Source: Planctomycetaceae bacterium (lineage in GTDB: Bacteria > Planctomycetota > UBA8742 > UBA2392 > JABWBM01). From it: a DNA stretch of 64,000 nt. A model generated the notes under the pieces. It was given only the letters and a program-made list of their open reading frames with translations, was not told the DNA's origin and ran no database searches. The DNA lies in assembly GCA_013360495.1 (NCBI GenBank), contig JABWBM010000011.1, positions 42-64,041 on the forward strand. Reading direction: 5' to 3'. Made by a program: the position numbers and the translations under genes. This document shows positions 7,566-63,412 of the stretch, piece by piece (within the stretch, counting starts at the first letter, position 1; each line of letters begins with the position of its first letter).

Positions 7566-7643
7566 GTCATGCCGACGAAAGTCGGCATCCAGCTACAATC
7601 AGATTTCTCGTCGCATCTGGATCCCCGCTTTCGCGGGGATGAC
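7566..7643. repeat. MITE-like element family A (forward hairpin, 24-nt spacer, reverse hairpin)
   Basis: gtcatgccgacgaaagtcggcatccag ... ctggatccccgctttcgcggggatgac. Confidence 0.85.
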
Positions 7644-7662
7644 GCCGCAGCAAGCTGCGGCG

Positions 7663-9039
7663 TCACTTACCGATGCAAAACTTGGCGAAGATGTGGTCGA
7701 GGACATCCGCCGAGGCTCCGTGGCCAAAGGCTTCGCGTATGGCGGAGAGCGCCGATCGGGCGAGGTCACTGACCACTTCGATGGGGGCGCCGCGATCCAA
7801 TTCCGAAACGGCTTCCTCCAGACGTGAGGCTGCCTCGGTAATCAGGGCTCCTTGGCGGGCGGATACAGCAGTAGTCTCCGGCGCGAGGGAGCGTTTGACG
7901 AGGGAAGTGATTCGGGACTTGAGCTCGGCGATGCCGTCGTTGGTGAGCGCGCTGACGGAGAGGGACGGATAGTCGCAGAATGGCTCTGGTAGGGGACTGG
8001 AGTTTGCGCACAGGTCGCGCTTGGTACGCACGATCAACGTACGATCATTTGTAAGATATGAGGCATTCCGGTGAAGGGGAGAATCAAAATGTAAGCAATC
8101 AAAGACTGGATTCCCGCCTTCGCGGGAATGACATGCCTTACTATCGATCACGAGTAACACAACATCGGCGCGATCCTGTTGTTCGTGGGTGGATTCAAGG
8201 GCGTGATTCTCGATCATATCGGCCGCCTGCTTCATGCCGGCGGTGTCCACGAGTTCCACGGCAATGCCGCCAAGATCGGCGGTTTCCAGCACGGCGTCGC
8301 GCGTGGTTCCGGCCTCATCGCTCACGATGGCACGCTCGCGCCCAAGGAGCGCATTGAAGAGCGTTGACTTTCCCGCGTTGGCCGGGCCGATGAGAACGAC
8401 CGACGGTTTCGCGTGGCCGGCGTGGCGCGGCGCTTCCGTGAACCGCCGCAGATGGTCAAGGGCCGCGCGCGCCATGTCCTTGAATCGGTCAAGCAATGCC
8501 TGTTCCGCCGCCTCCTCGTCAAAGTCAAAGCTCAGCTCGAACTGCGCGCACAGTGACTCAAGTTCGCTGACCAAGCGCTGGCCTTCTCGGGAGAGCGCCC
8601 CGTCCAGTACCGCGGAAAACCTGCGGGCATCTTCCTTGCCGCTGCTCGACACCAGTGCCATCACCGCTTCGGCTTGCGAGAGGTCGAGCACTCCGTTGAG
8701 ATAAGCGCGTTTACTGAACTCGCCCGGATCGGCCATGCGCGCACCGGCCTTGCACAGCTCACGCAGCACGGCGTCCACCAGCAATGGCGAGCCCGACAGG
8801 TGAATCTCCACGCAGTCTTCGCCGGTGGCGGAGTGCGGCGCTGGGGATATCCAGAGTTGTGCAGGACAAGCGCCTGCGGAAAGTTTGAGCCGTGTGCGAA
8901 CGATAGAACGCTTGGATTCAATAGATGCATCGGGGCAGAGCTTTCGCACGATCCCGATTGCCTCGTCGCCGCTCACGCGAATGGCCGCGCGGACTGCGGG
9001 AACAAGCGGCGTGGCTGGCGCGAAGATGGTTTCGGTCAC
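7663..9039 (-). CDS. mnmE: tRNA modification GTPase MnmE
   Basis: G1 motif GPANAGKSTLFNAL, G2/G3 DEAGTTRD..DTAG, and the C-terminal CIGK tetrapeptide. The gene overlaps yidC by 4 bp as in the classical arrangement. It carries an in-frame repeat insertion (next feature). Confidence 0.9.
   Translation of the reverse strand: MTETIFAPATPLVPAVRAAIRVSGDEAIGIVRKLCPDASIESKRSIVRTRLKLSAGACPAQLWISPAPHSATGEDCVEIHLSGSPLLVDAVLRELCKAGARMADPGEFSKRAYLNGVLDLSQAEAVMALVSSSGKEDARRFSAVLDGALSREGQRLVSELESLCAQFELSFDFDEEAAEQALLDRFKDMARAALDHLRRFTEAPRHAGHAKPSVVLIGPANAGKSTLFNALLGRERAIVSDEAGTTRDAVLETADLGGIAVELVDTAGMKQAADMIENHALESTHEQQDRADVVLLVIDSKACHSREGGNPVFDCLHFDSPLHRNASYLTNDRTLIVRTKRDLCANSSPLPEPFCDYPSLSVSALTNDGIAELKSRITSLVKRSLAPETTAVSARQGALITEAASRLEEAVSELDRGAPIEVVSDLARSALSAIREAFGHGASADVLDHIFAKFCIGK
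8062..8132. repeat. MITE family A copy embedded in-frame inside mnmE
   Basis: ggcattccggtgaaggggagaatc (degenerate unit) plus a 20-nt spacer plus ctggattcccgccttcgcgggaatgac. It is translated as CHSREGGNPVFDCLHFDSPLHRNASYLTND between the G3 and G4 (TKRD) motifs. Confidence 0.8.
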
Positions 9040-11138
9040 ATGGCGGTTCCCGGCATGGCGGACGCGCCGCGCGGGTCATCGATCAGCCCCTTGGCGTAGA
9101 GGTAACGGCGCACCAGCGTCGACTCAATCCACGAGAACATGATGCTGGCCACGAAGTAGAGCACGAAACCCGCCGGGAGCGCGTAGAAGAAGAGGATCAT
9201 CAAGGGGTTCATGATCCAGGTCATCATCACCTGCATCTGGCGCTGTTGGGGGTCGGTGGCCTTCGGCGTGCGGCTCTGCATGATGAACATCATCGCACCC
9301 CAGATCAGCGGGAGAATGTTGAGCGTGACATAGCCATGGAAGCTGATGCCGATGAAGGTGCTCTCGATCGCGCCGTAGATGGCGTCGGGGCGCGAGAGGT
9401 CGTTGATCCACAGGAACGATTCGTGATGCAAGAGGAATGAGTGGCGCAGCGAATTGTAGAGCGCGATGAAGATCGGGAATTGCAGGAGCAGCGGGAGGCA
9501 GCCGCCAAGCGGAAAGAAGCTCGCGCCCGCGGCTTTCATCGCGGCGCGGGTTTCCTGGAACATTAACATTTGCGCTTCGCGGCTCTTATCGTTCTTGTAC
9601 TTCTCCTTGATCTCGTCGATCTTGGGCTTGATCTTCTTCATTCTCGCGCCGTGAATCTGCATGGACATCTGGCCCTTGACCGAGAGCGGCGACATGCACA
9701 GACGCACGATGATGGTGAGCAGGATGATGGCGATGCCGACGCTGTTGGTGGTGTCTTTCAGCCAGCGCAGCAGCCACGTGATCGGCCCGGAAATCACCAG
9801 CGGCCAGCCGGTGGGGACGAGCTCGGTCCATGAAATCTTCTCGTCGTGTCCGGCAGGCCAGCCGGCGGCGAGCGCGGGTTCGATGTATTTCTCGCTGTTC
9901 GGGCCGACGTAGAGGGCGGCGCGGCGTTTCAGCGGCTCAGCGCCGGGGGCGATCTGGGTCTCGGGGAAGTTGAACGTGACACAGGTGTAGAATTCCTCGA
10001 GGGCTGCCTTCCGGGCGATGCGGTCCGGGCGCTCGACGACGTCCGCGCCCGCGCGCCCTTCAAACTCCGGAAGATAATCCATGCCGATGGCGGCGATGAA
10101 GTAACCGTTGGTCAGGCCGGCGAGGAGCAGCTCCCTTTCGGGATCTGGTTCAAACAGCTTGTGGAAGGGGACGGACGTCGTCCGGCCAGCCTTGCCCTGT
10201 TCGCGCAGTTCTTCGTCGATTTCGGCCATGGCGCCAGCGGCGTCGACGAACATGCGATGGTCGCCGGAGTAGGAGAGTCCTCCGCCGGATTGATAGAGGG
10301 CGACGATGCCAGTGTTGGTGTTCTCGAGCATGGATTCGCGGAACTCTTTGAAATTTTCGGCAATGCCGACCGGGCCATAGAGGAAGAGCTGCGGCGACGC
10401 TTGCTCCGCTCCGGAGTTGCGTACTTCGAGTTCGCAGACAACCTTGTGCGCGCCATAGATGAGGAAACGTTTGGCGATGCTGACGCCACGCGAGTCGGCT
10501 GGGGAGGTGAAGGTCAGCTCGGTATGGTCGCTATGGACGACGGGGCCGCTCGTCTCCCAGCGGACGGCGTTTCGCCATGCTTCGCTTCCGGCGAAGCCGA
10601 AGGTTGATGGTAGCGAATCGTCCCAATAGCCCGCGAACTCCGCGCTCGCCGGGTCGTACAGCTCGGGTTTGCGATCGGCGAACTCTTCTTTGAGGTGCTG
10701 GTGGCTCAGGAGTTGAAGCGGGTGATTAGGCGACTCCATCGGGTGGAGTGGCGTGCGCGCGAAGGTGATCTTCCCGTCCTTGTCGACGAAGCGCAGGATG
10801 GAGAGCACGGCGCCGCGGTCGCAGAAGACGGCGGTGTAGGACTCGTTCGCGACGGTGATGAAACGCGAGTCTTTGTAGGAAATGGTTGACGCATCCGCCG
10901 GAGGCGCCGGCGCAGGCTGTGTCTCTGTGATGGATGGGGGAGTGAGGTTTTCGAGTACCGGTGGAGTTTCGGACTTCGAGGCTGGAGGATTTTCGTTTGT
11001 GACAGGGGGCTGCGGCTTGTCAGCAGGCTTTTCGATCAACGATTCAAAATAGGAAAGGGAAGCGAAGAGCGCGCCCACGAGCAGAGCCGTCACCACCAGC
11101 GTGATCTTGGCGTACGAGCGTTTGATGTCCTGTGCCAT
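9036..11138 (-). CDS. yidC: membrane protein insertase YidC, extended to 700 aa
   Basis: Conserved C-terminal core (IILLTIIVRL...GGCLPLLLQFPIFIALYNSL...PAGFVLYFVASIMFSWIE). N-terminal TM plus a long periplasmic region. Confidence 0.9.
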   Translation of the reverse strand: MAQDIKRSYAKITLVVTALLVGALFASLSYFESLIEKPADKPQPPVTNENPPASKSETPPVLENLTPPSITETQPAPAPPADASTISYKDSRFITVANESYTAVFCDRGAVLSILRFVDKDGKITFARTPLHPMESPNHPLQLLSHQHLKEEFADRKPELYDPASAEFAGYWDDSLPSTFGFAGSEAWRNAVRWETSGPVVHSDHTELTFTSPADSRGVSIAKRFLIYGAHKVVCELEVRNSGAEQASPQLFLYGPVGIAENFKEFRESMLENTNTGIVALYQSGGGLSYSGDHRMFVDAAGAMAEIDEELREQGKAGRTTSVPFHKLFEPDPERELLLAGLTNGYFIAAIGMDYLPEFEGRAGADVVERPDRIARKAALEEFYTCVTFNFPETQIAPGAEPLKRRAALYVGPNSEKYIEPALAAGWPAGHDEKISWTELVPTGWPLVISGPITWLLRWLKDTTNSVGIAIILLTIIVRLCMSPLSVKGQMSMQIHGARMKKIKPKIDEIKEKYKNDKSREAQMLMFQETRAAMKAAGASFFPLGGCLPLLLQFPIFIALYNSLRHSFLLHHESFLWINDLSRPDAIYGAIESTFIGISFHGYVTLNILPLIWGAMMFIMQSRTPKATDPQQRQMQVMMTWIMNPLMILFFYALPAGFVLYFVASIMFSWIESTLVRRYLYAKGLIDDPRGASAMPGTAM

Positions 11139-14543: not shown

Positions 14544-14693
14544 TTTTACCACGGGGGACGCGGGGATCACGGGGAACGAAATGGACTTGAATGTTCTGTC
14601 CATTCTGAAATTGTTCTATGGTTGTTGATCCGAAGAAGTCTTTTTATCGCTCGTGTTTCCCCCCGTGCTGCCCCGTGTTCCCCGTGGTGAGAA
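14544..14693. repeat. MITE-like element family B (TTCACCACGGGG... terminal inverted repeats)
   Basis: ttaccacgggggacgcggggatcacggggaacg ... ccccccgtgctgccccgtgttccccgtggtga. Confidence 0.7.
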
Positions 14694-14939
14694 CTCTTTC
14701 ATTCGGAGCGCTTGCTCGCGTTCGACGCGCTTGCGGATACTCGCCTCGCTCTCCGGCCAGTAGCGCATGAACACTCCGGCCACCACCAGCGCGAGGCCCG
14801 CGAAGCACCCCACCAACGCAAGGGCTTGGTGCGTGTCCGGGTCGTCCTGTTGCCCCGGAAGAAAGAGCACCAGCAAGCCAACCATCGAAAGAAAGTATCC
14901 CCCGATGCGCAGCAGATTGCCTATGGCTGGGCGTCCCAT
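14616..14939 (-). CDS. small membrane protein (hypothetical); its 3' end runs into the MITE-B copy
   Basis: Two predicted TM helices. The C-terminal ~25 codons are encoded by the repeat. Confidence 0.35.
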   Translation of the reverse strand: MGRPAIGNLLRIGGYFLSMVGLLVLFLPGQQDDPDTHQALALVGCFAGLALVVAGVFMRYWPESEASIRKRVEREQALRMKEFSPRGTRGSTGGNTSDKKTSSDQQP

Positions 14940-18808: not shown

Positions 18809-19351
18809 ATGGCCCATGACGATGCCAGCCTCGTAAAGCGCACCCTCGGGGGCGACACAGCGGCATACCGCGAGTTGGTGGAGCGTTACCAGCGCGCGGT
18901 GTTCTCCTGCGCGTATCAACTGCTCGGCTCCCGCCATGACGCCGAGGAGGCGGCCCAGGAAGCCTTTGTGCAGGCTTTCGAAAAGCTCGACCGGCTGCGC
19001 GAGCCGCGCTATTTCTTCTCGTGGGTATGGCGCATTACGAGCACGGTGGCGTTGAAGTGGCGGCTCAAGCAGCGCCGCTCAGAGCTTGGCCTCGAAGCGG
19101 ATATGTTCGCGCGCGAACGTGAACAAGCGCCCGTGGAGCGGGAAGAGCAAAGACTCACTCTCTTGCAAGCTTTGGCGCAGTTGCCCGAAGAGCAACGCGA
19201 AGCCATCACGTTGCGCTTTTGGGAGGAGATGGATTACGCGCAAATGGGCAAGCTGCTCGGTATCAGCCATGACGCGCTCTACCAGCGTGTGTCGCGGGGA
19301 TTGAAGCAGCTTCGGGAACTCCTTGGGCAGGATTTCGTTGTACGAGAGTGA
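18809..19351 (+). CDS. RNA polymerase ECF-type sigma factor
   Basis: AEEAAQEAFVQAFEKLDRL, WVWRITSTVALKWRLKQ and region-4 HTH (EMDYAQMGKLLGISHDALYQRVSRGLKQLRE). Confidence 0.8.
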   Translation: MAHDDASLVKRTLGGDTAAYRELVERYQRAVFSCAYQLLGSRHDAEEAAQEAFVQAFEKLDRLREPRYFFSWVWRITSTVALKWRLKQRRSELGLEADMFAREREQAPVEREEQRLTLLQALAQLPEEQREAITLRFWEEMDYAQMGKLLGISHDALYQRVSRGLKQLRELLGQDFVVRE

Positions 19352-19589
19352 AGATTCACCACAGAGGCACGGAGAACACGGAGGAATACATTTCACGCAA
19401 AGAGAAAAAGATGGGAGAAAAGTGCGATCACGAAAGCGCGAAAGCTCGAAACATGATGGGGATTTTCAAATCTTGAGTTCGTGATTTTTCCATTTCGTGT
19501 TTTCGTGATCTCTTCTCCCTTCCGACTTCGCGCCTTTGCGTGCCAATCCTATTCTTTCTCTGCGTTCTCCGTGCCTCTGTGGTGAATCT
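19352..19589. repeat. MITE-like element family B (~240 bp nested palindrome)
   Basis: Termini attcaccacagaggcacggagaacac ... gttctccgtgcctctgtggtgaat. It fills the whole sigma to downstream-gene intergenic gap. Confidence 0.75.
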
Positions 19590-19598
19590 TGCAAAACC

Positions 19599-20612: not shown

Positions 20613-20667
20613 ATTCAAAAGCTGATTTCGAAGGCGATGAGCCAGCCGCGCATGGTGAAACCGAGGC
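20613..20667. repeat. 55-bp direct repeat copy 1 (duplicate of the 3' end of OMP gene 21347..22141)
   Basis: 51/55 identity with 21347..21401. It encodes ...GFTMRGWLIAFEISF* as a gene remnant. Confidence 0.8.
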
Positions 20668-20679: not shown

Positions 20680-21036
20680 TCATCGCACGCGAATCCTTTG
20701 CGGTTCGACAATAACCAGCGAGCCGTCGAGCCGGCGGACAATGTCGCGGTGCTTCAACAGGTCTCGAAGCATTGCCAGCACTTTTGCTCGATTGGCATGA
20801 ACCGGGCATACGAGGATAACGATTCCTGCATACTTCTTCGGAGGATACTGGCGAATGTCGGCGAAATCCCAATCGCGCGTCACAAGACACAACGAATGCC
20901 GTTTGGCGTAAGCGGCGATCATCTCATCGGGTGCGGTTCCCAAACCAATGTCGCGCACGTCAGCAGTTTCATGTTTTGCTCGCTGAAGAACCTCAGCTAC
21001 AGACCGAGGCAGGCTGGCGTCGATCAGGAATTTCAT
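20680..21036 (-). CDS. DUF5615-type PIN-like putative toxin
   Basis: MKFLIDASLPRSVAEVLQRAKHETADVRDIGLGTAPDEMIAAYA...LVTRDWDFADI matches the DUF5615 pattern (LxDENL...RDxGLxxAxDxEI...LVTxDxDF). Confidence 0.65.
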   Translation of the reverse strand: MKFLIDASLPRSVAEVLQRAKHETADVRDIGLGTAPDEMIAAYAKRHSLCLVTRDWDFADIRQYPPKKYAGIVILVCPVHANRAKVLAMLRDLLKHRDIVRRLDGSLVIVEPQRIRVR

Positions 21037-21039
21037 GGG

Positions 21040-21285
21040 CTAACCGGTGGAGCGGCTGCCGGGGAAGTGCTGCTCACCGGAAACAAGCTCGCTGGCGTAT
21101 GCGACAGCAGCGCGAATGTCCGCTTCGGTAATGTCATAATCCTTGGCGATAGCCGCAATCGAGTCGCCGCCCGCGAGGGCGTCGAGAACGACATGCACAA
21201 GCACGCGCGTACCTTTGATCACCGGCTTGCCGTGGCAAACGGCGGGATCGATGCTGATGCGTTTGTGGAGGGTGCTGGTAGCCAT
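21040..21285 (-). CDS. DUF433-domain putative antitoxin
   Basis: ISIDPAVCHGKPVIKGTRVLVHVVLDALAGGDSIAAIAKDYDITEADIRAAVAYASELV matches the DUF433 consensus. 3-bp gap to the DUF5615 gene. Confidence 0.65.
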   Translation of the reverse strand: MATSTLHKRISIDPAVCHGKPVIKGTRVLVHVVLDALAGGDSIAAIAKDYDITEADIRAAVAYASELVSGEQHFPGSRSTG

Positions 21286-21346
21286 TGGCTTTCCTCGCCG
21301 TGCAGTATATCACGCTTGTGTACGTCCGGCCATTGGCGCAGCCAAT

Positions 21347-22645: not shown

Positions 22646-22753
22646 TCTGGATTCCGGCTTTTACCGGAATGACACGTTGCATTGTTCTGTATTTCTCTGC
22701 GTCCTTTGCGCCTTTGCGGTGAAAAAACTGGATTCCCGCCTGCGCGGGAATGA
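22646..22753. repeat. composite repeat: two MITE-A hairpin units in direct orientation flanking a MITE-B arm fragment
   Basis: ctggattccggcttttaccggaatgac ... tttctctgcgtcctttgcgcctttgcggtgaaaaaa ... ctggattcccgcctgcgcgggaatgac. Confidence 0.75.
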
Positions 22754-22755
22754 CA

Positions 22756-24801: not shown

Positions 24802-24837
24802 AGTGTTGCACCGTAAACCGTGTTGCACCGTCAACCA

Positions 24838-24874
24838 AAGACGTAGCGTCACGCGCCCTCGCGTGACGGTCTTC
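24838..24874. repeat. MITE family C single hairpin unit
   Basis: aagacgtagcgtcacgcgccctcgcgtgacggtcttc. Confidence 0.7.
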
Positions 24875-35841: not shown

Positions 35842-35921
35842 CGTCACACCGGCGGAAGCCGGTGTCCAGGAGCTATCAGAAAACATTCGTCGTGTCTGGA
35901 TTCCGGCTTACGCCGGAATGA
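35842..35921. repeat. MITE-like element family A (paired hairpins)
   Basis: gtcacaccggcggaagccggtgtccag ... ctggattccggcttacgccggaatgac. Confidence 0.85.
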
Positions 35922-35968
35922 CGGCCGTATCGCATTTTCGAGCGAAGAGTTGGTATAAGCCGCTCCCG

Positions 35969-37735: not shown

Positions 37736-37789
37736 GTCTTTCTCCCCGGCGTTTGGGCGTTTCGGTCGTATCATCAACGTGGAGAATCG

Positions 37790-41990: not shown

Positions 41991-42070
41991 GTCATTCCGG
42001 CGAAAGCCGGAATCCAGATATAACGGGCGATTCTCGGTAGCCACTGGATGCCGACTTTCGTCGGCATGAC
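41991..42070. repeat. MITE-like element family A (paired hairpins)
   Basis: gtcattccggcgaaagccggaatccag ... ctggatgccgactttcgtcggcatgac. Confidence 0.85.
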
Positions 42071-42871: not shown

Positions 42872-42898
42872 GTCATTCCCGCGAAGACGGGAATCCAT
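42872..42898. repeat. MITE family A single hairpin unit
   Basis: gtcattcccgcgaagacgggaatccat, in the 49-bp gap between the ATPase and permease genes. Confidence 0.7.
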
Positions 42899-49506: not shown

Positions 49507-49558
49507 CCCGGATTCCCGCGAGTTATGCAAACCTTGGGTGCAAATTCGATGTTCAGCC

Positions 49559-49626
49559 GTCATGCCCGCGTAGGCGGGCATCCAGTCTTCTCTTTGTATC
49601 TGGATTCCGGCTTGCGCCGGAATGAC
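49559..49626. repeat. MITE-like element family A (paired hairpins, 14-nt spacer)
   Basis: gtcatgcccgcgtaggcgggcatccag ... ctggattccggcttgcgccggaatgac. Confidence 0.85.
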
Positions 49627-49705
49627 GATACCAATCATCCATGGTATCAAACGAGGCAGACGCGCGGACGTTCGATGAAAGATGCTTTGAGATCCCGCCG
49701 GTGGG

Positions 49706-50950
49706 TTACTTCTTTTTCTTTCCGCTATCGGCGGGTTGCTTCTTGGGTGGTAGCTTGAAGAACTTGGTACGCTCGGCGCCATTACGCTCGAAGACGACGG
49801 TGAATTCGGTCACTCCCTCGTTCCGTAAATTCATGACGAGATTCTTGGCTGCTTCGATAGTGGTTACCGGAGTTCCATTGACAGACTTGAGAATATCTCC
49901 GCCACGCGCACCTGCGCGGTAGGCGAGACTATCCGAAGGAAGGGAGTCATTGAATTTAAGGCCAACGTCGTTGCCTTCCATATCAGTTTGGCGGGAGACA
50001 TAACTGGTCATGGCTTCCAACACTCCCGCGTTCATGTCTTCCCAGCCGAGCTGGACGTTATCGCCGACAACCTTGGTCGTTCTGTTCTCTTCCGACATGT
50101 CCCACGGCGATTCGTCGGCGGCTGCATCGACAGGCGGTATCTGCTTGGAAGCGTCATCTATTTTCTTGTCAGGGCCGGTAAGCCTACTCGGGCTCGAGCC
50201 GCCTATTGTCTTTTTGACGCCGATAAACGCATCCTTGTAATCCTCATAAGGGACTTCGAGCGTGATCTCGTAGCGGCCATTGACGGGTTGCAGCTTCTTG
50301 TCGAGCTTCTCGATCTTCTCCGGTGGCGTTGTTTTGATCGCCTCCGTCAGTTCCTTGGTAGTGACGGCGAGGATGATGTAGTTGCCGTTAATTTCGGTGA
50401 TGATGGCGTCCATGGTGTTGCTGATCTGCGTGCCGTAGTCGGGGTTATCGTCCTTGGGAAATTTCGCCTGAATATTCGTTCCTTTTTCGACGGCCATCTC
50501 CATGCCGTCGAATCCCTTCCCCTTCAGTTCGAGCGCAACCCAACTCCTCAAGCCTTCGACCGACGCTAAAACGTCGGGCATCTTGACGACGCGGATGACG
50601 GAGAATTTGCTCGCGACTTCCTTCTCGATGTTGTCGCGGATTTTCTTGAAGTCGACGCCTTCGTCGATGGGTTTCGTGGTGCCGCCTCCGCTGATTACGG
50701 TTTCAATCTTTGACGCAGGTCCGGGCATGATGTTGACCGGCTTGAACGAGATCGACGTATTCTTGTTCTTGAGGCTTTCCCACGTTTCAGGTGGGTCGAT
50801 CTTCATGATGTTTTTGTCGCGAAGGCGGGCGTCGAGCGATTCGCGCTCGCTCTTCTGGTCGCTATAAAAATCGAATGCCAAGTAGCCGCCCCCCGCGAGC
50901 AGCGCGAGGTTCGTCACCCAAAGGACTGTTGGCAGCGGCGATTTTCTCAT
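49706..50950 (-). CDS. PDZ-domain membrane protein (GspC-like architecture), low-GC
   Basis: N-terminal TM and C-terminal PDZ (GARGGDILKSVNGTPVTTIEAAKNLV...EFTVVFERNG). ~48% GC. Confidence 0.45.
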   Translation of the reverse strand: MRKSPLPTVLWVTNLALLAGGGYLAFDFYSDQKSERESLDARLRDKNIMKIDPPETWESLKNKNTSISFKPVNIMPGPASKIETVISGGGTTKPIDEGVDFKKIRDNIEKEVASKFSVIRVVKMPDVLASVEGLRSWVALELKGKGFDGMEMAVEKGTNIQAKFPKDDNPDYGTQISNTMDAIITEINGNYIILAVTTKELTEAIKTTPPEKIEKLDKKLQPVNGRYEITLEVPYEDYKDAFIGVKKTIGGSSPSRLTGPDKKIDDASKQIPPVDAAADESPWDMSEENRTTKVVGDNVQLGWEDMNAGVLEAMTSYVSRQTDMEGNDVGLKFNDSLPSDSLAYRAGARGGDILKSVNGTPVTTIEAAKNLVMNLRNEGVTEFTVVFERNGAERTKFFKLPPKKQPADSGKKKK

Positions 50951-50974: not shown

Positions 50975-51061
50975 GTCATGCCGGCGTAAGCCGGCATCCA
51001 GTCTTTTTTCTCTACGTCTCTTTCTTTTCAACGTCTGAATTCCGGCTTGCGCCGGAATGAC
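50975..51061. repeat. MITE-like element family A (paired hairpins)
   Basis: gtcatgccggcgtaagccggcatccag ... ctgaattccggcttgcgccggaatgac. Confidence 0.85.
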
Positions 51062-53450: not shown

Positions 53451-53479
53451 TGTAGCGTCACGCGCCCTCGCGTGACGGG
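53451..53479. repeat. MITE family C single hairpin
   Basis: tgtagcgtcacgcgccctcgcgtgacggg. Confidence 0.7.
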
Positions 53480-53547
53480 CCTACCATTGGTAGTGCAAAG
53501 ACGCCCTTTATCCCGATCGGTCGAAAAATCTTCCTCTTGCCGCAGAG

Positions 53548-54438
53548 ATGCCGATCGCTAGGCTATCAACCGCAATGCTCACCCGTGAACCGCTGCTGCA
53601 TTCCGCCACCGTCACGCGCCAGATCGACTACGGCCACGGCTACTACGTTCTCGAGTTTGACTGCCCCGACCTCGCTGCCTCCATCGGCGTAGGGCAGTTC
53701 GTCAATCTGCGCGTGAGGAACGACTACTCGCCGCTCCTGCGCCGCCCCTTCAGTGTGTTCGATGTGCTCATTGATCGCGCCAACAATCCATCGGGCATCA
53801 GCCTGCTCTACCACATCGTCGGCGCCGGCACAGGCCTGATGGCGAAGATGAAGGAAGGCGAAAAGGTCTCGCTCAACGGTCCGCTCGGCAAGCCCTTCCC
53901 CTGGCCAACCGACGACAAAGCCGCCATCTACATGGTGGGCGGCGGTATCGGCACCGCGCCTTTTTTACTGCAAGCGAAGCGCTGGATGAAGGAAGCGCCC
54001 GGCAGAGAGTACGTCTTCATCGCGGGCGGGCGCAGCGACCACGACTTGAAATATATGACGCACTTCTCGCCACTCACGAAGCAGGGCCTCAACCTCATGC
54101 TCACCACCGAGGATGGCTCGGTGGGCTTCCGTGGGCGCGTGACCGACCCACTGCGTGGCGAATTGCAAGCGCGCGCGAAGAAGAAGCTCACGTCCGCGGT
54201 TTATTGCTGCGGGCCGACGCCGATGATGGCCGCGGTCTCGGCGCTCTGCGAGGAATTCGACGTGACCTGCATGGCCAGCCTCGAATCCGTGATGGCGTGC
54301 GGCTACGGCGTGTGCAACGGCTGCGTGTGCGCGATCGACGACGCGACGAAGGAGAAGGGCTGGCGCTACGCCAAGACCTGCATCGAAGGCACCTGCTTCG
54401 ACGCGCGCAAGATCCAATGGAAGAAGATCAGCGTGTAG
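53548..54438 (+). CDS. PyrK-like FAD/NAD(P)-binding oxidoreductase with C-terminal [2Fe-2S] cysteine cluster
   Basis: RRPFSVFDV (FAD), GGGIGTAPF (NAD) and CGYGVCNGCVC. No pyrD nearby. Confidence 0.65.
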   Translation: MPIARLSTAMLTREPLLHSATVTRQIDYGHGYYVLEFDCPDLAASIGVGQFVNLRVRNDYSPLLRRPFSVFDVLIDRANNPSGISLLYHIVGAGTGLMAKMKEGEKVSLNGPLGKPFPWPTDDKAAIYMVGGGIGTAPFLLQAKRWMKEAPGREYVFIAGGRSDHDLKYMTHFSPLTKQGLNLMLTTEDGSVGFRGRVTDPLRGELQARAKKKLTSAVYCCGPTPMMAAVSALCEEFDVTCMASLESVMACGYGVCNGCVCAIDDATKEKGWRYAKTCIEGTCFDARKIQWKKISV

Positions 54439-54473: not shown

Positions 54474-54553
54474 GTCATGCCGACGAAAGTCGGCATCCAG
54501 GACCCATGAAAAGACAAAAAGTTAAGATGGATTCCGGCTTTCGCCGGAATGAC
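54474..54553. repeat. MITE-like element family A (paired hairpins)
   Basis: gtcatgccgacgaaagtcggcatccag ... atggattccggctttcgccggaatgac. Confidence 0.85.
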
Positions 54554-54597
54554 GTTATAAACGCCAACCATTCATGGGGGCAGTAAGAGCCCTCGTA

Positions 54598-57500
54598 TCA
54601 CTCCGGGATCAGCACCAGCGCGCGGCGCTCGGCATCGGCTGCTGTCTTGACGTGGGTGCGGAAGCTCGCGTAATTCTCGACGTCGATACGCGCCGCCATG
54701 GTGCGTAGCGAGCGTTTGACGGTCAAAGTCCCGCCGTCGAGCGAATACGTTAAGGAATAGAGGAAGGGGTGCGCCGGGATCGCCACATCCTCGGGCATAC
54801 GCTCGAGGCGGTAGCCCTCTGGCAGCTCATAGCGCAGGGTTTCCTCGAAGACGATGCTGTCGGAAATCACGAGGTCGAAGGCCCGGTGTTCCTCGCTGAT
54901 GTAGCGTCCGAAAACGTCGCCCGTGTTTGTCAGGTGTGGCGTGAAGCGCAGGCCATCGCCTTCGGTCTTTTGCGCCGCGGACGCCATGGAAGCGTCGAAA
55001 GTTCTCAGGAAGGGTACGCCAAGCTCTTCGACCTTGACCAACTCGAATGCTCCGATCGAAATGCCCGGCATGAATGAGCCGACCGTCTGCTCGAGCGCGC
55101 GTTTGTTGTCGTTCGGCGTTGCCGTGCGGGCTTGTTCGCGATCGTCGTATCCATAGGCGCCGAAGTCCGTGACGTTTCCGGTCACCGTTGCCGAACCGTC
55201 AGCGGCGAGTTTCAGAGTTAAGGCTACGCCGCGCCGATCGCGGCTCTCGTCGCCCCCCGGGAGGCGAAGGAATGTCCACGCGCCGCTCGCGGGATCGATG
55301 GCCATGGCGGGCGCTTCGAACATGGCGCTCTCCAGTTCACCGAAAGGGGCGAGACGATAGGTCATGTCGATGAATACCTGTTCGCCCTCGTCTTCTATGA
55401 GGAGAAGGCGACTGCGAAGCATATCTGCGTAGTCGAGATAGCGCGGTTTGCGCGTCTCGATATCGGGGTCGTTGCCCGCAAACACATGCTTGTACTCCAC
55501 TCCTGCCGCATCCAGCATCGCGGCCATCAGCGCGAAGCGGTCGCCGGACTTTTGTTCGACGGTGGTGTGCGGATTGGTGCCGCCGCCGGTGGTTCGAATC
55601 GTTGAATTTACCCAGGCGTAGAGGGCGACGGCCTTTTGGATGTCGCCGGCGTCGCGGTCGAGCACGGACAACGCTTGCATGGCAGCCTCGCGCACACGCC
55701 ACGTTACCTCCGTGGCGCGCAGGGAGGAGCGCAGACGCCGCGCCGCACCTGTCCACGGATTTTCGCCCGGACGGTAAAAAGTCACCTTCGGCATGGTTTC
55801 GTCGCGTGTTGGCATGGCGGGTTCGGCCTTGCGGCTTCTCGGGCGGCGCATCTCCCAACTCAAGAGGACGCGGCCATCGTCGAGCTCGCGGCGAGTGAAC
55901 GTAGCGCCCTCCATATTTTCTTCGCGGTAGTGAACGACGAAGTCCTTGGGCGTGACGACCACGAGGCGCGCGAGCGCGGTGGGGGTGCGAACGTCGCGAT
56001 CCTCGAACTGGAACGAGACATCGTCGAGCACGCCCGGAGTGCTCGCGCGAGTGTACCGGCGGTAGGCCGTGTCGATCACTGCGCCCGGCTCGACGCCCGG
56101 GAACTCGAAGTTCGCGCCGGTCACCGTCACCGGTTCAAGCTCGGCGCCATCGCCCTTGATCGTGCGCGCGCGCAGCACTTCGCCGTCGATGCGCTGCCGC
56201 CCGTGGGTGTCGACGGCGTCTTGCAGCAAAATCTTCGTCACAGTCTGCCCATAGGCGACGAAGCTGCCGTCCTTCTCCACGTGCCAGACTTCTTCATCAA
56301 GCAGCCATCCGGCGGAAGCGAGCGGATAGTCTTGCGCTTTCAGCCAGTCGCGCGCCTGTAAGGGATCGAGGGCCGTCGAAAACTCGCTCAACATCTGCGG
56401 TGCTTTGCCGTCAAGCCGCGCGAGGTAGCGCCGGGCGTTGTCGTGGCCGGGGTTGCGCTCGACGGTTTTGAGCAGCGCTTCGCGCGCTTCTTTCTCCAAG
56501 CCATTGCGGTATGCGAGCATGGCCGCGTCGTAATAGCGGTTGGCCCTGCCGCGCTCCGGGCGCTCAGCAAGCGCCATGAGAATGGCGAAGGCTTCGGCAA
56601 TCTTCCCCGACGCCGCGAGAATCGCTGCCCGTTCGCGTTGCGTAGTGGTCGTAGCGCCACCGAGGATTCGTTCCTTGGCCTCTATATATTCGAGGGCCGT
56701 GTCGAAGTCGCCGCCGTTGAGCGCGAGACGTTTGAGTGCGTCGAGAATGTTGGTGTTATTCTTCGCCGGGCCGTCTGCCAGTTGCTCATAGAGCTCCTGC
56801 GCCAGTTCAAGATCGCCGTCCGCTTCCGCCATTTCCGCGCGCATAAGCACCAATTGCGCAGGCCGCGACGAGGTCTCGGTGAAAGCTAGCATACGCTGAT
56901 TGCGCGCCTCGGCCTGCCACTTACGCCGGTCGAAGAAAGCAGCGTAATGGGTCCGGTGAGCCCAGTGCGGCTGGATCGCCAGCGTTTCATCGTAGAGTTT
57001 GCGGGCGTCGCCATCGCGGTCTTCGCCCACGCGGATATTGGCGAGCTTCAAGCGCGACACCACTGCGCCGGGTTGGTTCGCGTTGAGCCACGTGTAACGC
57101 TCGGCGAGGATGCGGCGCTGCTCGGCAGCCGTGGCGACGCTTGTCCGCTCGTAATACATGGCGTCGAGGCAGGCTTCCATTAAAGGATGAGACTTGCGGT
57201 AGCCCTCCGCTTCGTGCCAGAGATCTTCGGCTTGTTCCGGGCTTTGCGCTCCAAGCAATTCCAACGCGAGTAAACAGCGGGCTTGCATTTGTACCTTCGG
57301 GTCTTTGGCGCTATCGATGAGTGACGCCAGCCGTTGGTAGCGATAGGGGATGGGCTGCGACGCGGGCGGGACAGAACCGCGTGGCGCGAAGGGCTTCATG
57401 TCCGTCGGATATTGCGAACGGACGGATTCGAGAGAGAGGCGAGTCTTCGGGTCGCAGATGCGGACGGTGGCGGCGCTCAGCGATCCGAGCTTGACCAGCA

Positions 57501-58281
57501 GCGTGCTCGTGCCTTTGGGTATCTGAACGAGCGCCGAGTCGTCGCGGGAATAATCGGCCTCGGGCCTGCGGTTGAAAACCATATTGCCGTTGAGCCAAAC
57601 CTTCACGCCGCCATCGTTGACCTCGATGTCCAGCAGCGCTTCGAATGCGTCGCCATCGTTTACTACTTGTGTTAAGAGGAACCAGCCTGTGCCGTCGTGT
57701 TCGAACACGTCTTGTGGGTTGACGGTGGAACGCGAGGGGAGTTCGGGCGTCCACTTTGTCCAGCTTACCGGGCCGAAGGCGCCGCTCATGGTTTGCTTCG
57801 TGTCCACCCACAGTTCGGGCTGGAGCACGTCGTAATGCCTGTCCCCGTCGTTGGCGCCGAACGGCCCGGCGACAAGCCATTGCTGCAGGCCAAGGGTGGC
57901 GTTCTCGATGCGCCGCGCAGTGTCGAGGTCGTCGTCGACGAGAGCAGCCTCGTGCATCACCCCGAGAAAAGCGCGGGCGCTGAGGCCGAGCACGCCGAGG
58001 CGCTTGGCGTTGCCGGAGATGGCGAGTAGCGTTTTGCCCAGCGCGTCGGGGTTATCGGTATAGAAAAGAGTATGACCGAAATGATTGATATAGGTAAGCG
58101 TGGCAATGTCGTCGGGGGAATTCTGCACGGCGTCGAACATGCGCGCGGCGATCACGTTGTAATCGTTCTTCACCCACGGCTCGAAGTCAAAACACTGGTC
58201 GAGGATTTTCGTGTTGACGGCGGTTTGTGCGTGGAGCAGGCCAGAGAAGGCGAAGAGCATGACAAGTATCAATCGGGTCAT
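54598..58281 (-). CDS. large secreted protein (1227 aa) with TPR-like repeats (hypothetical)
   Basis: Signal peptide MTRLILVMLFAFSGLLHAQTA and helical repeat blocks in the middle third. Confidence 0.45.
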   Translation of the reverse strand: MTRLILVMLFAFSGLLHAQTAVNTKILDQCFDFEPWVKNDYNVIAARMFDAVQNSPDDIATLTYINHFGHTLFYTDNPDALGKTLLAISGNAKRLGVLGLSARAFLGVMHEAALVDDDLDTARRIENATLGLQQWLVAGPFGANDGDRHYDVLQPELWVDTKQTMSGAFGPVSWTKWTPELPSRSTVNPQDVFEHDGTGWFLLTQVVNDGDAFEALLDIEVNDGGVKVWLNGNMVFNRRPEADYSRDDSALVQIPKGTSTLLVKLGSLSAATVRICDPKTRLSLESVRSQYPTDMKPFAPRGSVPPASQPIPYRYQRLASLIDSAKDPKVQMQARCLLALELLGAQSPEQAEDLWHEAEGYRKSHPLMEACLDAMYYERTSVATAAEQRRILAERYTWLNANQPGAVVSRLKLANIRVGEDRDGDARKLYDETLAIQPHWAHRTHYAAFFDRRKWQAEARNQRMLAFTETSSRPAQLVLMRAEMAEADGDLELAQELYEQLADGPAKNNTNILDALKRLALNGGDFDTALEYIEAKERILGGATTTTQRERAAILAASGKIAEAFAILMALAERPERGRANRYYDAAMLAYRNGLEKEAREALLKTVERNPGHDNARRYLARLDGKAPQMLSEFSTALDPLQARDWLKAQDYPLASAGWLLDEEVWHVEKDGSFVAYGQTVTKILLQDAVDTHGRQRIDGEVLRARTIKGDGAELEPVTVTGANFEFPGVEPGAVIDTAYRRYTRASTPGVLDDVSFQFEDRDVRTPTALARLVVVTPKDFVVHYREENMEGATFTRRELDDGRVLLSWEMRRPRSRKAEPAMPTRDETMPKVTFYRPGENPWTGAARRLRSSLRATEVTWRVREAAMQALSVLDRDAGDIQKAVALYAWVNSTIRTTGGGTNPHTTVEQKSGDRFALMAAMLDAAGVEYKHVFAGNDPDIETRKPRYLDYADMLRSRLLLIEDEGEQVFIDMTYRLAPFGELESAMFEAPAMAIDPASGAWTFLRLPGGDESRDRRGVALTLKLAADGSATVTGNVTDFGAYGYDDREQARTATPNDNKRALEQTVGSFMPGISIGAFELVKVEELGVPFLRTFDASMASAAQKTEGDGLRFTPHLTNTGDVFGRYISEEHRAFDLVISDSIVFEETLRYELPEGYRLERMPEDVAIPAHPFLYSLTYSLDGGTLTVKRSLRTMAARIDVENYASFRTHVKTAADAERRALVLIPE

Positions 58282-58331
58282 ATGATCTTCCTTCAGATAG
58301 GTCTGTTATTCGGGAAGAATACAACCACGCC

Positions 58332-58410
58332 GTCATTCCGGCGAAAGCCGGAATCCAGTCTTATGGACATTTTTTGGTCGCTTCTGGATACCGGCTTTCG
58401 CCGGTATGAC
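58332..58410. repeat. MITE-like element family A (paired hairpins)
   Basis: gtcattccggcgaaagccggaatccag ... ctggataccggctttcgccggtatgac. Confidence 0.85.
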
Positions 58411-60588: not shown

Positions 60589-60661
60589 TGTAGCGTCACG
60601 CGCACCCGCGTGACGGACTAGTTCAAAGACAAGACGCCATGCGAGGGCGCATAGCGCTACA
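60589..60661. repeat. MITE-like element family C
   Basis: tgtagcgtcacgcgcacccgcgtgacgg ... aagacgccatgcgagggcgcatagcgctaca. Confidence 0.75.
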
Positions 60662-60669
60662 AAAATGTC

Positions 60670-63318
60670 CTACCGCTTCTCTCGCGCCCGGATCACCGCT
60701 TGCGCAGCCGCAAGCCGGGCGATCGGAACGCGGTAGGGCGAGCAACTCACATAGTCAAGGCCTGTATCGTGGCAGAAGCCGATCGACGACGGGTCGCCGC
60801 CGTGCTCGCCACAGATGCCGAGCTTTAACTTGGGGTTGACTTTGCGGCCAAGCTTGCAAGCCATGTCGATCAATTGCCCCACACCCTCGCGGTCGATGGT
60901 GGCGAAAGGGTCGGTGGGGTAGATGCCCCGCGCCACATACTCGCGCAGGAAACTCTTCTCCGCGTCGTCGCGCGACACAGCAAGCGTCATCTGCGTGAGA
61001 TCATTTGTCCCAAAGCTGAAAAAGTCGGCGTGGCTTGCAATCTTGTCGGCGATCAGAGCTGCGCGCGGCACCTCGATCATCGTGCCGATCATCATGGGCG
61101 GGCAATCTTTATAGCCCGCGATCAGGGTTTCAGCGCGGCGGCGCAGGCGGCGCAATTCCTCCTCGGTGCCGACGAGGGGAATCATCACCTCGCAATGGAC
61201 CTTCACACCCGCCTTGCTCGCTTCGATGGCGGCTTCCGCGATGGCGCACACCTGCATGTCGTAGATTTCGGGCAGCACGATGCCGAGGCGGCAGCCGCGA
61301 AAGCCGAGCATGGGGTTCATCTCGTGCAGGCGTTCGGTGGCTGCTGTGATCATCTCCACCGAGACGCCGATGGTGCGCGCGACGTCCTTCTGCAAGATTC
61401 GCCCTTGTGGCAAAAACTCATGGAGCGGCGGGTCGAGCAGGCGGATGGTGACGGGCAAGCCGTCCATGGCCTTGAAGATGTCGACGAAATCGCCCTTTTG
61501 CATGGGCTTGAGCTTGTCGAGCGCTTTGCGTCTGCCCTGATCGTCGGCGGCGAGGATCATCTCGCGCATGGCGTTGATGCGATCCTCGGCGAAGAACATG
61601 TGTTCGGTGCGGCACAGCCCGATGCCTTGAGCGCCGAATTCGCGGGCTTTCGCTGCGTCCGGGCCGGTGTCGGCGTTGGTGCGGACCTTCAGCGTTCGCA
61701 GCTCGTCGGACCAGCGCATGATCGTGGCGAAATCATCATCAAGGCGCGCAGGTATCGTGCCTACCGAGCCGAGCATCACGTCGCCGCTGGTGCCGTCGAG
61801 GCTAATGACATCTTCTTCGCGTACTCTCGTACTGCCGATTTCGAAATACTTTTCTTCTTCATTAATCGTGATGTCCGAGCAGCCGGTCACGCAGCACTTG
61901 CCCATTTGGCGCGCCACCACGGCAGCGTGGGACGTGCGTCCGCCCCGCGCCGTGAGGATGCCGACGCTCGCCGCCATGCCCTTGATGTCCTCGGGGCTGG
62001 TTTCAAGGCGCACGAGAATGGTGGACATGCCGCGCCCGGCCAGTTCCACGGCCTTGTCGGGTGTGAAGGCAACCTTGCCGACGGCGGCGCCGGGGGACGC
62101 GGGCAGCCCCGTGGTGAGGACGGTTCGCTTGGCGTTGTGATCGAAGGATGGGTGCAGCAGTTGGTTGAGGCTCGATGCATCGATGCGCATCAGCGCTTCG
62201 TCCTTCGTCGTGATGCCCTCGCGCGTCATGTCGAGGGCGATGCGGATGGCTGCCCGGCCCGTGCGCTTGCCGTTGCGGGTTTGCAGCAGGAAGAGCTTGC
62301 TCGACTGGATGGTGAACTCGATGTCCTGCATATCCTTGTAGTGGCGTTCGAGCTTTTGGCGCACGTCGAGAAGTTGTTGATAGGTTTTCGGCTGGCGGAG
62401 TTTGAGCGCGCCGATGTCTTCGGGCGTGCGGATGCCGGCGACGACGTCCTCGCCTTGAGCGTTGAAAAGCACATCGCAGAAGAAGGCGTTCTCGCCGTTG
62501 GACGGGTCGCGGGTAAAGCCGACGCCCGTGCCTGAGTCGTCGTTGAGGTTGCCGAAGACCATGGCCTGCACGTTGACGCCTGTGCCGTAAAGGCCCGCGA
62601 TGTGATTCAGTCTGCGGTACTCGATGGCTCGCTCGTTGTTCCACGAGCGGAAGACCGCTTCAATCGCCGTGAGAAGCTGCTTCCATGGGTCGGTGGGAAA
62701 GTCTTGTCCGGTGCGGTCGCGGTAAAGGGACATGAGCTGGCCGCAGAGTTCTTTGAGCGCCGGGCCGGGGACGTCAGAGTCCTTCGTGATGTTCAAGCGC
62801 TGCTTGAGATCATCGAACATATGCTCAAAGGCCTTGCGCGACACGCCCATCACCACGTCGGAATACATCGTGATGAAGCGGCGAAAGCTGTCATAGGCAA
62901 AGCGCGGGTTGTTGGTCTCTGCTGCGAGCGCCTCCGCCGTGTTGGGATTGAGGCCAAGGTTGAGGATCGTGTCCATCATGCCGGGCATGGAGGCTGCTGC
63001 GCCGGAGCGCACGGAGAAAAGCAGCGGTTTTGCGCCGCCGAAGCTGCGGCCAAGCTCGGCTTCCACCGTTGCGACGGATTTCCGCACATCGGCTTCGAGG
63101 CCGTCGGGGAGTTTATTGTCGGTGTTGAGATAGTCAGCGCAGGTCTGCGTGGTGATGGTAAAGCCGGGCGGAACAGGCAGGCCGATGGCCGTCATCTCGG
63201 CGAGGTTCGCGCCCTTGCCACCGAGCAAGTGCTTCATCGTCGCATTGCCCTCAGCGCCCTTCGCACCGAAGGCGTAAACATGTTTGGTTGGTGGGGGAGT
63301 TGGCATGGAAGGCTCCAT
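60670..63318 (-). CDS. ppdK: pyruvate, phosphate dikinase
   Basis: Phosphohistidine domain GGRTSHAAVVAR, ATP-grasp N-terminus and PEP-utilising C-terminus. 882 aa. Confidence 0.95.
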   Translation of the reverse strand: MEPSMPTPPPTKHVYAFGAKGAEGNATMKHLLGGKGANLAEMTAIGLPVPPGFTITTQTCADYLNTDNKLPDGLEADVRKSVATVEAELGRSFGGAKPLLFSVRSGAAASMPGMMDTILNLGLNPNTAEALAAETNNPRFAYDSFRRFITMYSDVVMGVSRKAFEHMFDDLKQRLNITKDSDVPGPALKELCGQLMSLYRDRTGQDFPTDPWKQLLTAIEAVFRSWNNERAIEYRRLNHIAGLYGTGVNVQAMVFGNLNDDSGTGVGFTRDPSNGENAFFCDVLFNAQGEDVVAGIRTPEDIGALKLRQPKTYQQLLDVRQKLERHYKDMQDIEFTIQSSKLFLLQTRNGKRTGRAAIRIALDMTREGITTKDEALMRIDASSLNQLLHPSFDHNAKRTVLTTGLPASPGAAVGKVAFTPDKAVELAGRGMSTILVRLETSPEDIKGMAASVGILTARGGRTSHAAVVARQMGKCCVTGCSDITINEEEKYFEIGSTRVREEDVISLDGTSGDVMLGSVGTIPARLDDDFATIMRWSDELRTLKVRTNADTGPDAAKAREFGAQGIGLCRTEHMFFAEDRINAMREMILAADDQGRRKALDKLKPMQKGDFVDIFKAMDGLPVTIRLLDPPLHEFLPQGRILQKDVARTIGVSVEMITAATERLHEMNPMLGFRGCRLGIVLPEIYDMQVCAIAEAAIEASKAGVKVHCEVMIPLVGTEEELRRLRRRAETLIAGYKDCPPMMIGTMIEVPRAALIADKIASHADFFSFGTNDLTQMTLAVSRDDAEKSFLREYVARGIYPTDPFATIDREGVGQLIDMACKLGRKVNPKLKLGICGEHGGDPSSIGFCHDTGLDYVSCSPYRVPIARLAAAQAVIRAREKR

Positions 63319-63385
63319 CTTGAGAGTCCGGAGTCCGGCGTGCGGAGTCCGGTGTCGAACCCATAGAAAGCGGGTTCACTTATAT

Positions 63386-63412
63386 GTCATTCCCGCGGAG
63401 GCGGGAATCCAT
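63386..63412. repeat. MITE family A single hairpin unit
   Basis: gtcattcccgcggaggcgggaatccat. Confidence 0.7.

Follow-up and report, generated by a model that had tools for sequence, protein, structure and literature searches.

The stretch of DNA analysed here (the window) comprises 64,000 nt of a Planctomycetaceae bacterium (GenBank assembly GCA_013360495.1, contig JABWBM010000011.1, positions 42 to 64,041) and carries, mostly between its genes, a family of short hairpin repeats. We call these repeats family A and identify them as repetitive extragenic palindromes (REPs) of the CGTC-1 family. In total, 19 canonical 27-nt units, one decayed arm (8062) and one collapsed copy (4075) were found, which makes 21 units at 12 loci. 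The canonical layout is (C/T)GTC-A-stem-loop-stem-CCAG, with an unpaired tag (the head) before the hairpin and an unpaired tail after it. Two units can be arranged head-head (HH, heads outside), head-tail (HT) or tail-tail (TT). The genes named below were mapped by the length of open reading frames (ORFs) and by codon-position G+C content, and the map is concordant with the Pfam assignments and the recorded gene calls. The 12 loci are:

4075..4101, + strand: collapsed CGTC-1 copy, GTCATGCCCGCGCAGGCGGGTAATGAC, one hairpin with the GTCAT head on both sides, then TTTGTTTCTT; 25 nt past the stop codon of a PBP gene (1272-4049, +)
7566..7643: HH dimer, arms 7566-7592 (+, stem ATGCCGAC) and 7617-7643 (-, stem ATCCCCGC), spacer 24 nt; 19 nt downstream of the mnmE stop codon and 72 nt upstream of the start of an ECF sigma factor gene, both genes on the - strand
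8062..8132: intragenic HH dimer within mnmE (7663-9039, -); right arm 8106-8132 perfect, left arm 8062-8088 decayed
22647..22754, - strand: HT pair, units 22647-22673 and 22728-22754 in the same orientation, 54 nt apart; the latter ends 1 nt past the stop codon of an E1 dehydrogenase gene (22756-24915, -) and is followed on the - strand by the terminator-like CCAGTTTTTT
35843..35922: HH dimer, arms 35843-35869 (stem ACACCGGC) and 35896-35922 (stem ATTCCGGC), spacer 26 nt; 34 nt past the stop codon of a PilZ-domain gene (35401-35808, +), upstream of ribF
41991..42070: HH dimer, arms 41991-42017 and 42044-42070, spacer 26 nt; intra-operon, between an ABC-2 permease gene (42104-42862, -) and an ABC_transp_aux gene (39703-41958, -)
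42872..42898, + strand: solo unit filling the 49-bp gap between an ABC ATPase gene (42912-43640, -) and the permease gene (42104-42862, -)
49559..49626: HH dimer, arms 49559-49585 (stem ATGCCCGC) and 49600-49626 (stem ATTCCGGC), spacer 14 nt, beginning with TCTT; 79 nt downstream of the stop codon of a PDZ gene (49706), at the annotated 5' end of a TPR gene
50975..51061: HH dimer, arms 50975-51001 and 51035-51061 (tail TCA, not CCA), spacer 33 nt, beginning with TCTT; in the gap between two - strand genes, obg (stop 51109) upstream and the PDZ gene (start 50950) downstream
54474..54553: HH dimer, arms 54474-54500 and 54527-54553, spacer 26 nt; in the only occupied convergent gap, between genes 53548-54438 (+) and 54598-58281 (-)
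58332..58410: HH dimer, arms 58332-58358 (exact consensus) and 58384-58410 (stem ATACCGGC), spacer 25 nt, beginning with TCTT; between a GATase gene (stop 58495) and a gene for a 1227-aa protein (start 58281), both on the - strand
63386..63412, + strand: solo unit, ATTCCC-N8-GGGAAT, the exact dRS3-type core; in a gap between two - strand genes, 15 nt downstream of the ruvC stop codon (63428), with the pyruvate phosphate dikinase gene starting 67 nt further downstream

Structure of the repeat units

The repeats are real and the coordinated changes in their stems hold. When the consensus GTCATTCCGGCGAAAGCCGGAATCCAG was searched with at most three mismatches, 10 matches were found in the window against 0.00 in 100 dinucleotide shuffles, and with at most seven mismatches there were 19, all of them perfect or near-perfect hairpins. 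The simpler pattern ATTCC-N10-GGAAT occurs 15 times versus 2.3 expected. Alignment of the 19 units gave (C/T)GTC-A-T-N-C-C-S-R-C / G-N-A-R / G-Y-S-G-G-N-A-T-CCA-G. The GTC of the head is present in every unit, preceded by C in 15 and by T in four, and this tag is unpaired within the unit. The stem has 8 bp, of which pair 1 is A-T in 19/19 and pair 2 T-A in 18/19 units. All loops are 4 nt long (GAAA, GAAG, GTAA, GCAA, GGAA, GCAG, GTAG, GGAG and AAAA), while the unpaired tail is CCA in all units except one, which has TCA, and is followed by G in 16 of the 19.

If the stem ((((((((....)))))))) is imposed on the alignment, 99.3% of the 152 cells are standard pairs, compared with 85% in column shuffles and 14-45% when the 3' partners are slid by 1-3 columns. 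Two-sided changes were found at four of the eight stem pairs, in 18 cells: TA/GC/AT/CG at pair 3, GC/CG at pair 6, GC/AT at pair 7 and TA/CG at pair 2. Some stem variants recur, ATGCCGAC three times and ATTCCCGC four times. They thus represent recurring subfamilies, and the independent compensatory events must be fewer than the cells counted. The unit at 42872 has a single C.A mismatch on the + strand, which is G.U on the mRNA strand. In the left arm at 8062-8088, the one closer to the 3' end of mnmE, 7 of 27 positions are mismatched and stem pairing is lost.

An earlier look at this DNA (the original prediction) had proposed at least 11 copies of an element composed of two inverted 27-nt hairpins with a 14-33-nt spacer, the stem cores of which change coordinately. 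All 11 positions were correct within 1 nt, every one of the cores named (CCGGCG, CCCGCG, CCGACG and CACCGG) was recovered, and the coordination is seen in the alignment of all units; the collapsed copy at 4075-4101 is a twelfth locus absent from that account. The inverted architecture applies to eight loci, and the spacer range is correct for these inverted pairs, but the units at 22647/22728 are in tandem and those at 42872 and 63386 are solo.

REPs are divided into a GTAG-tagged and a CGTC-tagged superfamily (Di Nocera, De Gregorio and Rocco 2013, BMC Genomics 14:522, PMC3733652). In CGTC-1 the tag is often TGTC (CCTC is allowed), the loop has 4 nt (5 nt in families 2-4), the tail is an unpaired CCA, the 8-bp stem begins with A-T and T-A, and there are complementary stem subfamilies (PMC3733652). 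According to the same study, CGTC-1 dimers are predominantly HH, with TT rare and HT negligible, and heterodimers exist in some species; the units are spread over the genome in high copy number, typically following ORFs in gaps of the co-directional or convergent kind, with some intragenic copies and no associated transposase (PMC3733652). The dRS3 repeat of Neisseria and RPE-6 of R. conorii are CGTC-1 units (PMC3733652). Family A shows every sequence feature of the published family, and its assignment to CGTC-1 is secure. An Rfam scan of the window returned no family for the repeats, its only match being a tRNA at 45369-45442 (-).

Arrangement and genomic placement

Eight HH dimers, one HT pair, no TT pair and three single loci are present in the window, with at most two units per locus. 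The spacers of the inverted pairs are 14-33 nt long, and in five of the eight 24-26 nt. Pairwise alignment of the window spacers (14-54 nt) in either orientation gave low scores, as for unrelated sequences. Since the spacers cannot be aligned, the 80-bp unit is not a conserved miniature inverted-repeat transposable element (MITE). No dimer has the same stem in both arms. The RNA folds predicted for the dimers (z-scores -4.3 to -8.6) are either a single long, imperfect hairpin or a pair of small hairpins sharing a common stem. No target-site duplication was detected at the window units, the flanks of which are C...G palindrome extensions and not direct repeats.

Eleven of the 12 loci are intergenic and lie 1-84 nt downstream of a stop codon. 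Ten of these occupy co-directional gaps and one a convergent gap; the eight divergent gaps of the window hold none, an absence that is not significant (P ~0.13, computed by hand from the gap lengths). Three units lie within the operon for an ABC transporter, which encodes the ATPase, the permease and the auxiliary protein. The original prediction had placed the copies precisely in gaps between convergent or tandem genes, citing the 49-bp ATPase-permease gap at 42872. This gap is exact and the statement is right for 11 loci, but not for the dimer at 8062, which is translated inside MnmE.

Read in frame, the element at 8062-8132 corresponds to residues 303-326 of MnmE, CHSREGGNPVFDCLHFDSPLHRNA, in the part of the GTPase domain that separates motif G3 from motif G4. 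In the AlphaFold model (mean pLDDT 83) the insert is a low-confidence coil between the strand 293-299 and the helix 321-328, and it directly precedes the G4 motif TKRD. The corresponding loop varies among nine MnmE homologues (34-51% identical), most of which have a shorter one, and in none is it similar to the insert. An MnmE recorded at NCBI for a Planctomycetes bacterium MAG is identical to the protein of the window, and the next best homologue is 50% identical.

Occurrence beyond the window

Neighbouring DNA of the same organism was taken from GCA_023150505.1, GCA_026647195.1 and read-derived contigs, which added 12.2 kb of flanking sequence, so that ~76 kb were covered in total. Where they overlap the window, the sister assemblies and the read-derived (Logan) contigs are 100% identical to it. 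The flanks contain seven more units, namely three HH dimers and one single, or about one unit per 3 kb as in the window; a lack of enrichment beyond the window would have refuted the original prediction, but the density outside is equal. The units break short-read assemblies of this organism: for 54525-58357, the stretch with the gene for the 1227-aa protein, two short-read contigs start or stop inside arms of the flanking REP dimers.

The contigs with the closest MnmE homologues are 11.8 kb (49% identity) and 21.3 kb (46%) long, and the latter keeps the order yidC-mnmE. They contain no CGTC-1 unit in 33 kb, where ~11 would be expected at the density of the window. The nearest sampled relatives thus do not share the family.

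More distant genomes gave a different picture. A scan of the GTDB species representatives with a nearly exact 27-mer, degenerate at four positions, yielded at least 120 matches. By record name, the hosts among the matches listed belong to at least 10 other phyla, and several of the records are complete long-read chromosomes. These hosts include Chloroflexota/Dehalococcoidia, Thermodesulfobacteriota and other delta-proteobacteria, Gamma-, Beta- and Alphaproteobacteria, Bacteroidota, Ignavibacteria, Verrucomicrobiia, Acidobacteriota, Binatia, Elusimicrobia, Gemmatimonadetes and Bipolaricaulota. In IMG/VR a degenerate unit pattern also had at least 120 matches, and the contigs among those listed have 32-72% G+C. 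Previously, CGTC repeats were listed in five phyla, and Planctomycetes were listed with GTAG repeats only (PMC3733652). We are therefore dealing with a known, widespread repeat family in a host new to the 2013 paper, and its range looks wider than described there.

In ~430-450 units elsewhere, again among the matches listed, almost no variation is seen in head, tail and base pairs 1, 2, 4, 5 and 8, and it is pairs 3, 6 and 7 that covary. The pairs of units in the other genomes are 57 HH, 10 HT and 3 TT, and several dimers are present in Dyella nitratireducens DHG59. Across phyla, 83 units in co-directional gaps are in sense and 75 in antisense orientation to transcription, and in both groups the loop reads G-N-A-R along the unit itself. 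One-sided stem changes, read in mRNA sense, are 7 G.U versus 16 A.C, and about one fifth of the intergenic units of this sample lie in divergent gaps.

Five related phage contigs from IMG/VR (61-72% G+C) have CGTC-1 repeats at the same site: the gap that separates the large terminase gene from the portal gene holds a single unit or a dimer, with stem variants that differ from contig to contig. Beside the units in ~240 foreign loci we found phage structural genes and, as the only recurrent non-structural family, an IS110-type transposase (five loci). In the corresponding IMG/VR contigs (42-50% G+C) the transposase (DEDD_Tnp_IS110 plus Transposase_20) is encoded 200-350 nt from dRS3-type units. 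One of these contigs (L028) has 12 units in 13.5 kb, resembling a Neisseria NIME array beside a filamentous prophage. The IS110 neighbours in such Nf-prophage-like contigs are the known link between dRS3 and prophages, recovered here independently. A screen of 240 foreign loci for HUH/Y1 motifs revealed one RAYT-like ORF (RAYT, REP-associated tyrosine transposase), in which the Y1_Tnp score of 19.5 bits falls short of the 23-bit cut-off. The hairpins on either side of this ORF are of the GTAG type and not CGTC ones. In the window itself no transposase domain was found in any gene, nor was a RAYT gene, an IS110 gene or a prophage.

DNA-level elements or RNA hairpins

Taken as a whole, the repeats are best explained as a population of CGTC-1 REP units, most of them arranged as HH dimers, and we put the probability of this explanation at roughly 0.7. 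That the units are non-autonomous elements at the DNA level which are spreading, or formerly spread, by means of an enzyme acting in trans has in our estimation slightly better than even odds. Such an enzyme would recognise the folded single-stranded hairpin together with the invariant head, tail and base pairs 1, 2, 4, 5 and 8. At pairs 3, 6 and 7 it would need pairing only, and this would explain the compensatory subfamilies. Copies would persist where they do least harm, that is past stop codons, between cistrons and in a protein surface loop, and a dimer whose arms differ is no long perfect palindrome. If the hairpins protect mRNA 3' ends at all, this would then be a secondary effect.

Four observations lead us to favour the DNA level. 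First, conservation across phyla extends to the unpaired head and tail and to the identity of five base pairs, and the other three pairs are free to covary. Second, the G-N-A-R loop is independent of the direction of transcription (83 sense, 75 antisense). Third, there is no G.U bias on the mRNA strand (7 vs 16). Last but not least, the units are patchy among relatives, occur in phage contigs and have landed in frame in a conserved GTPase.

Several points weigh against this explanation. No insertion polymorphism or empty site was found in any of the other assemblies and Logan contigs, all 100% identical, and together with the lack of target-site duplications this means that mobility is not shown. 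The unconserved spacers are unlike what recent copy-and-paste of whole dimers should leave behind; they fit old copies of which the arms alone are maintained, and this could equally be due to host selection on the arms. A mobilising enzyme was never identified for the CGTC superfamily (PMC3733652), and none was found among the window genes. Finally, the gene calls for the cross-phylum sample are crude, with ~130 units scored as intragenic, mostly through spurious ORFs.

The strongest alternative, which we nevertheless regard as doubtful, is that the host keeps the hairpins as RNA elements, which block 3'-5' exonucleases or terminate transcription, so that selection acts on the RNA stem. All 11 intergenic loci lie at most 85 nt downstream of a stop codon, the dimers have strong predicted folds (z-scores -4.3 to -8.6), and E. 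coli REPs stabilise upstream mRNA (PMC3733652). The absence from the eight divergent gaps would also fit, but it is not significant (P ~0.13), and about one fifth of the intergenic units in other phyla are in divergent gaps. Similarly, the sense-orientation loops GAAA, GCAA, GUAA and GGAA are GNRA tetraloops, but half of the loops are G-N-A-G and not GNRA. Both one-sided stem changes in the window are G.U on the mRNA strand (2/2); this was not upheld across phyla, where G.U is not favoured over A.C and the orientation is even. Further, a simple protective hairpin needs no invariant head, tail or five base-pair identities across phyla, one copy lies within coding sequence, and close relatives are without units. 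A role as 3'-end protecting hairpins is possible.

With respect to termination, T-runs follow 22728(-) and 4075(+), but a T-run on the transcribed strand accompanies only 2 of the 21 units, and terminator-like sites are no commoner in the window than in shuffles. The suggestion in the original prediction that the copies could act as terminators thus receives little support: only 22728(-) was flagged on the transcribed strand, and the T-rich tail of 4075(+) was seen by eye. We rejected a terminator role for most copies, as the flagged site 50978(+) is on the wrong strand and there is no enrichment over shuffles.

Another explanation, in our view quite improbable, is that the units are protein sites in double-stranded DNA, either targets of IS110 (bridge-RNA) recombinases or filamentous phages, or sites for nucleoid or topology proteins, a role suggested for the BIMEs of E. 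coli. In Neisseria, filamentous prophages use a phage-encoded transposase to integrate into dRS3 (PMC1797815), IS110 elements are known to target REPs, and in five of ~240 foreign loci an IS110-type transposase gene stands 200-350 nt from a unit. The near invariance of five base pairs, head and tail is also in line with duplex binding. However, duplex binding predicts conserved bases and not compensatory changes which keep intrastrand pairing, and the window has neither an IS110 gene nor a prophage. Moreover, use as a target accounts for the landing of elements in units but not for the origin of hundreds of units.

Chance matches or an assembly artefact are refuted, since zero matches were expected, three independent assemblies and several read-derived contigs have identical units at identical places, and the motif is present in complete long-read chromosomes of other phyla, although the short-read contig breaks at the units show repetition only. 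A tRNA-minihelix-like reading, in which the hairpin with its CCA tail serves as substrate of RNase P or the CCA enzyme, was discarded, as it found no supporting evidence.

Other repeats and consequences for annotation

A second REP family in the window is tagged with GTAG and has the sequence GTAG-CGTCACGSC-TAT-GSCGTGACG-TCTT, with compensatory variants of its own. It forms four HH dimers, with units ~24-60 nt apart, and four singles:

4115-4143/4168-4196: GTAG dimer
13807-13835/13896-13924: GTAG dimer
29433-29461/29472-29500: GTAG dimer
52228-52256/52281-52309: GTAG dimer
24843-24876: GTAG single
39036-39066: GTAG single
53452-53485: GTAG single
60590-60623: GTAG single

Three of these loci appear to lie in divergent gaps, unlike family A, and GTAG units are a type normally tied to RAYT transposases. 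The collapsed CGTC copy at 4075 and one of the GTAG dimers are 13 nt apart.

In this genome TCTT directly after the hairpin tail is common to the CGTC-1 and the GTAG families. In 8 of the 11 CGTC-1 dimers of the window and its flanks, TCT(T) follows the CCAG tail of exactly one arm, and in none does it follow both, which gives the CGTC-1 dimer a polarity. In other organisms TCT follows the tail in only 9 of 227 CGTC-1 units. The shared TCTT may simply mean that the unit of this subfamily is a few bases longer, or it could be a site used by the enzyme that moves GTAG units. That one enzyme handles both kinds of units here seems distinctly unlikely to us. If TCTT were indeed a shared cleavage or joining site, a CGTC family would have its long-missing mobiliser in the RAYT of this genome. 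With its dense unit population, its GTAG family and its REP-free relatives, this is a reasonable genome in which to find the CGTC enzyme.

The results are of use mainly for annotation, since the units give over-extended or spurious ORFs, insert peptides in real proteins and break short-read assemblies. The longest ORFs 35780-36913 (+; ribF) and 48784-49782 (-; TPR protein) cross REP dimers at their 5' ends. In the former the FAD-synthetase domain begins only at residue 85, and the recorded gene call for the TPR protein also begins upstream of the dimer. The true starts of both genes are probably downstream of the repeats.

Further features were noted in passing. A third, MITE-like type of repeat is found at 19351-19590, 37531-37748 and 14654-14700; it is ~220-240 bp long and has 36-50-nt inverted repeats with TTCCCCGTGGTGAGAA or TCTCCGTGCCTCTGTGGTGAATC. 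Its internal motif CTTTGCGCCTTTGCG recurs in the 54-nt spacer of the pair 22647/22728. A 55-nt direct repeat (20613-20667 and 21345-21399; 93% identical, 732 nt apart) lies at the edges of the ORFs 20698-21357 (+) and 21347-22141 (-), both without a Pfam match. Next to mnmE, the YidC homologue (9036-11138, -) has 700 aa, with the 60KD_IMP domain only at residues 468-677; the match spans 210 residues for a 163-position profile, and the homologue encoded on the 21.3-kb contig is also long (754 aa).

Comparison with known repeat families

The original prediction had likened the repeats to REP/BIME, Correia and RPE elements. The comparison with REP and RPE is right, because every sequence feature of CGTC-1 is present and dRS3 and RPE-6 belong to CGTC-1, but Correia elements are distinct and the BIMEs of E. 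coli belong to the GTAG superfamily. Correia elements are also small, abundant and intergenic, and their inverted ends can form RNA hairpins. They show a TA target duplication, while family A has no duplication, non-conserved spacers and self-pairing 27-nt arms. In size, Correia elements (CREE) are 105-156 bp long, with a conserved core and 26-51-bp terminal inverted repeats (PMC1797815).

With the GTAG REPs and REPINs (E. coli BIME, Pseudomonas) family A shares the small hairpin with an unpaired 4-nt tag, the inverted doublets which can be folded as one long hairpin, similar genomic niches and probably a similar single-strand biology. In contrast, the tag of family A is (C/T)GTC and not GTAG, the latter being the mark of E. 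coli REP/BIME. The repeats on either side of RAYT genes are GTAG units or long terminal inverted repeats, never CGTC units (PMC3733652).

Closer relations exist to Neisseria. The dRS3 repeat is a 20-bp unit, ATTCCC-N8-GGGAAT (PMC1797815), and this pattern is found within GTCATTCCCGCG..GGGAATCCAG in exact form at 8110, 22732, 42875 and 63389. The other window units have ATTCCGG..CCGGAAT or variants of it and do not fit the exact dRS3 pattern. In a BLAST search a window dimer aligned with N. gonorrhoeae at 91-94% over 33 nt, and Azospirillum was matched as well. As the query is short, the same search gave only three records in the plasmid collection (two 2.17-Mb N. gonorrhoeae, one Azospirillum replicon) and no matches in the phage collection. 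Unlike family A, the units in NIMEs flank 50-150-bp RS elements and form long mosaic arrays by surface-antigen genes; the window has no arrays but only dimers and singles that stand alone, and the genes beside them are housekeeping ones.

The RPE-6 element of Rickettsia has the same unit type, which can be inserted in frame into genes for conserved proteins and add a short loop peptide, as in mnmE here. Rickettsia elements differ in that only 1 of the 12 loci here is intragenic, and the classical RPE-1 is a longer, unrelated palindrome.

The best match are the CGTC-1 REPs as a whole. The head, the 8-bp stem, the 4-nt loop, the CCA tail, the complementary subfamilies and the predominance of HH dimers are the same, as are the spacers of 20-100 nt or fewer, the heterodimers, the sites downstream of ORFs and the occasional in-frame intragenic copies; among the window genes no flanking transposase was found either. 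What sets the population described here apart is its host, a Planctomycete, the fact that every dimer is a heterodimer, and the TCT(T) after one tail in 8 of the 11 dimers, which is rare elsewhere.

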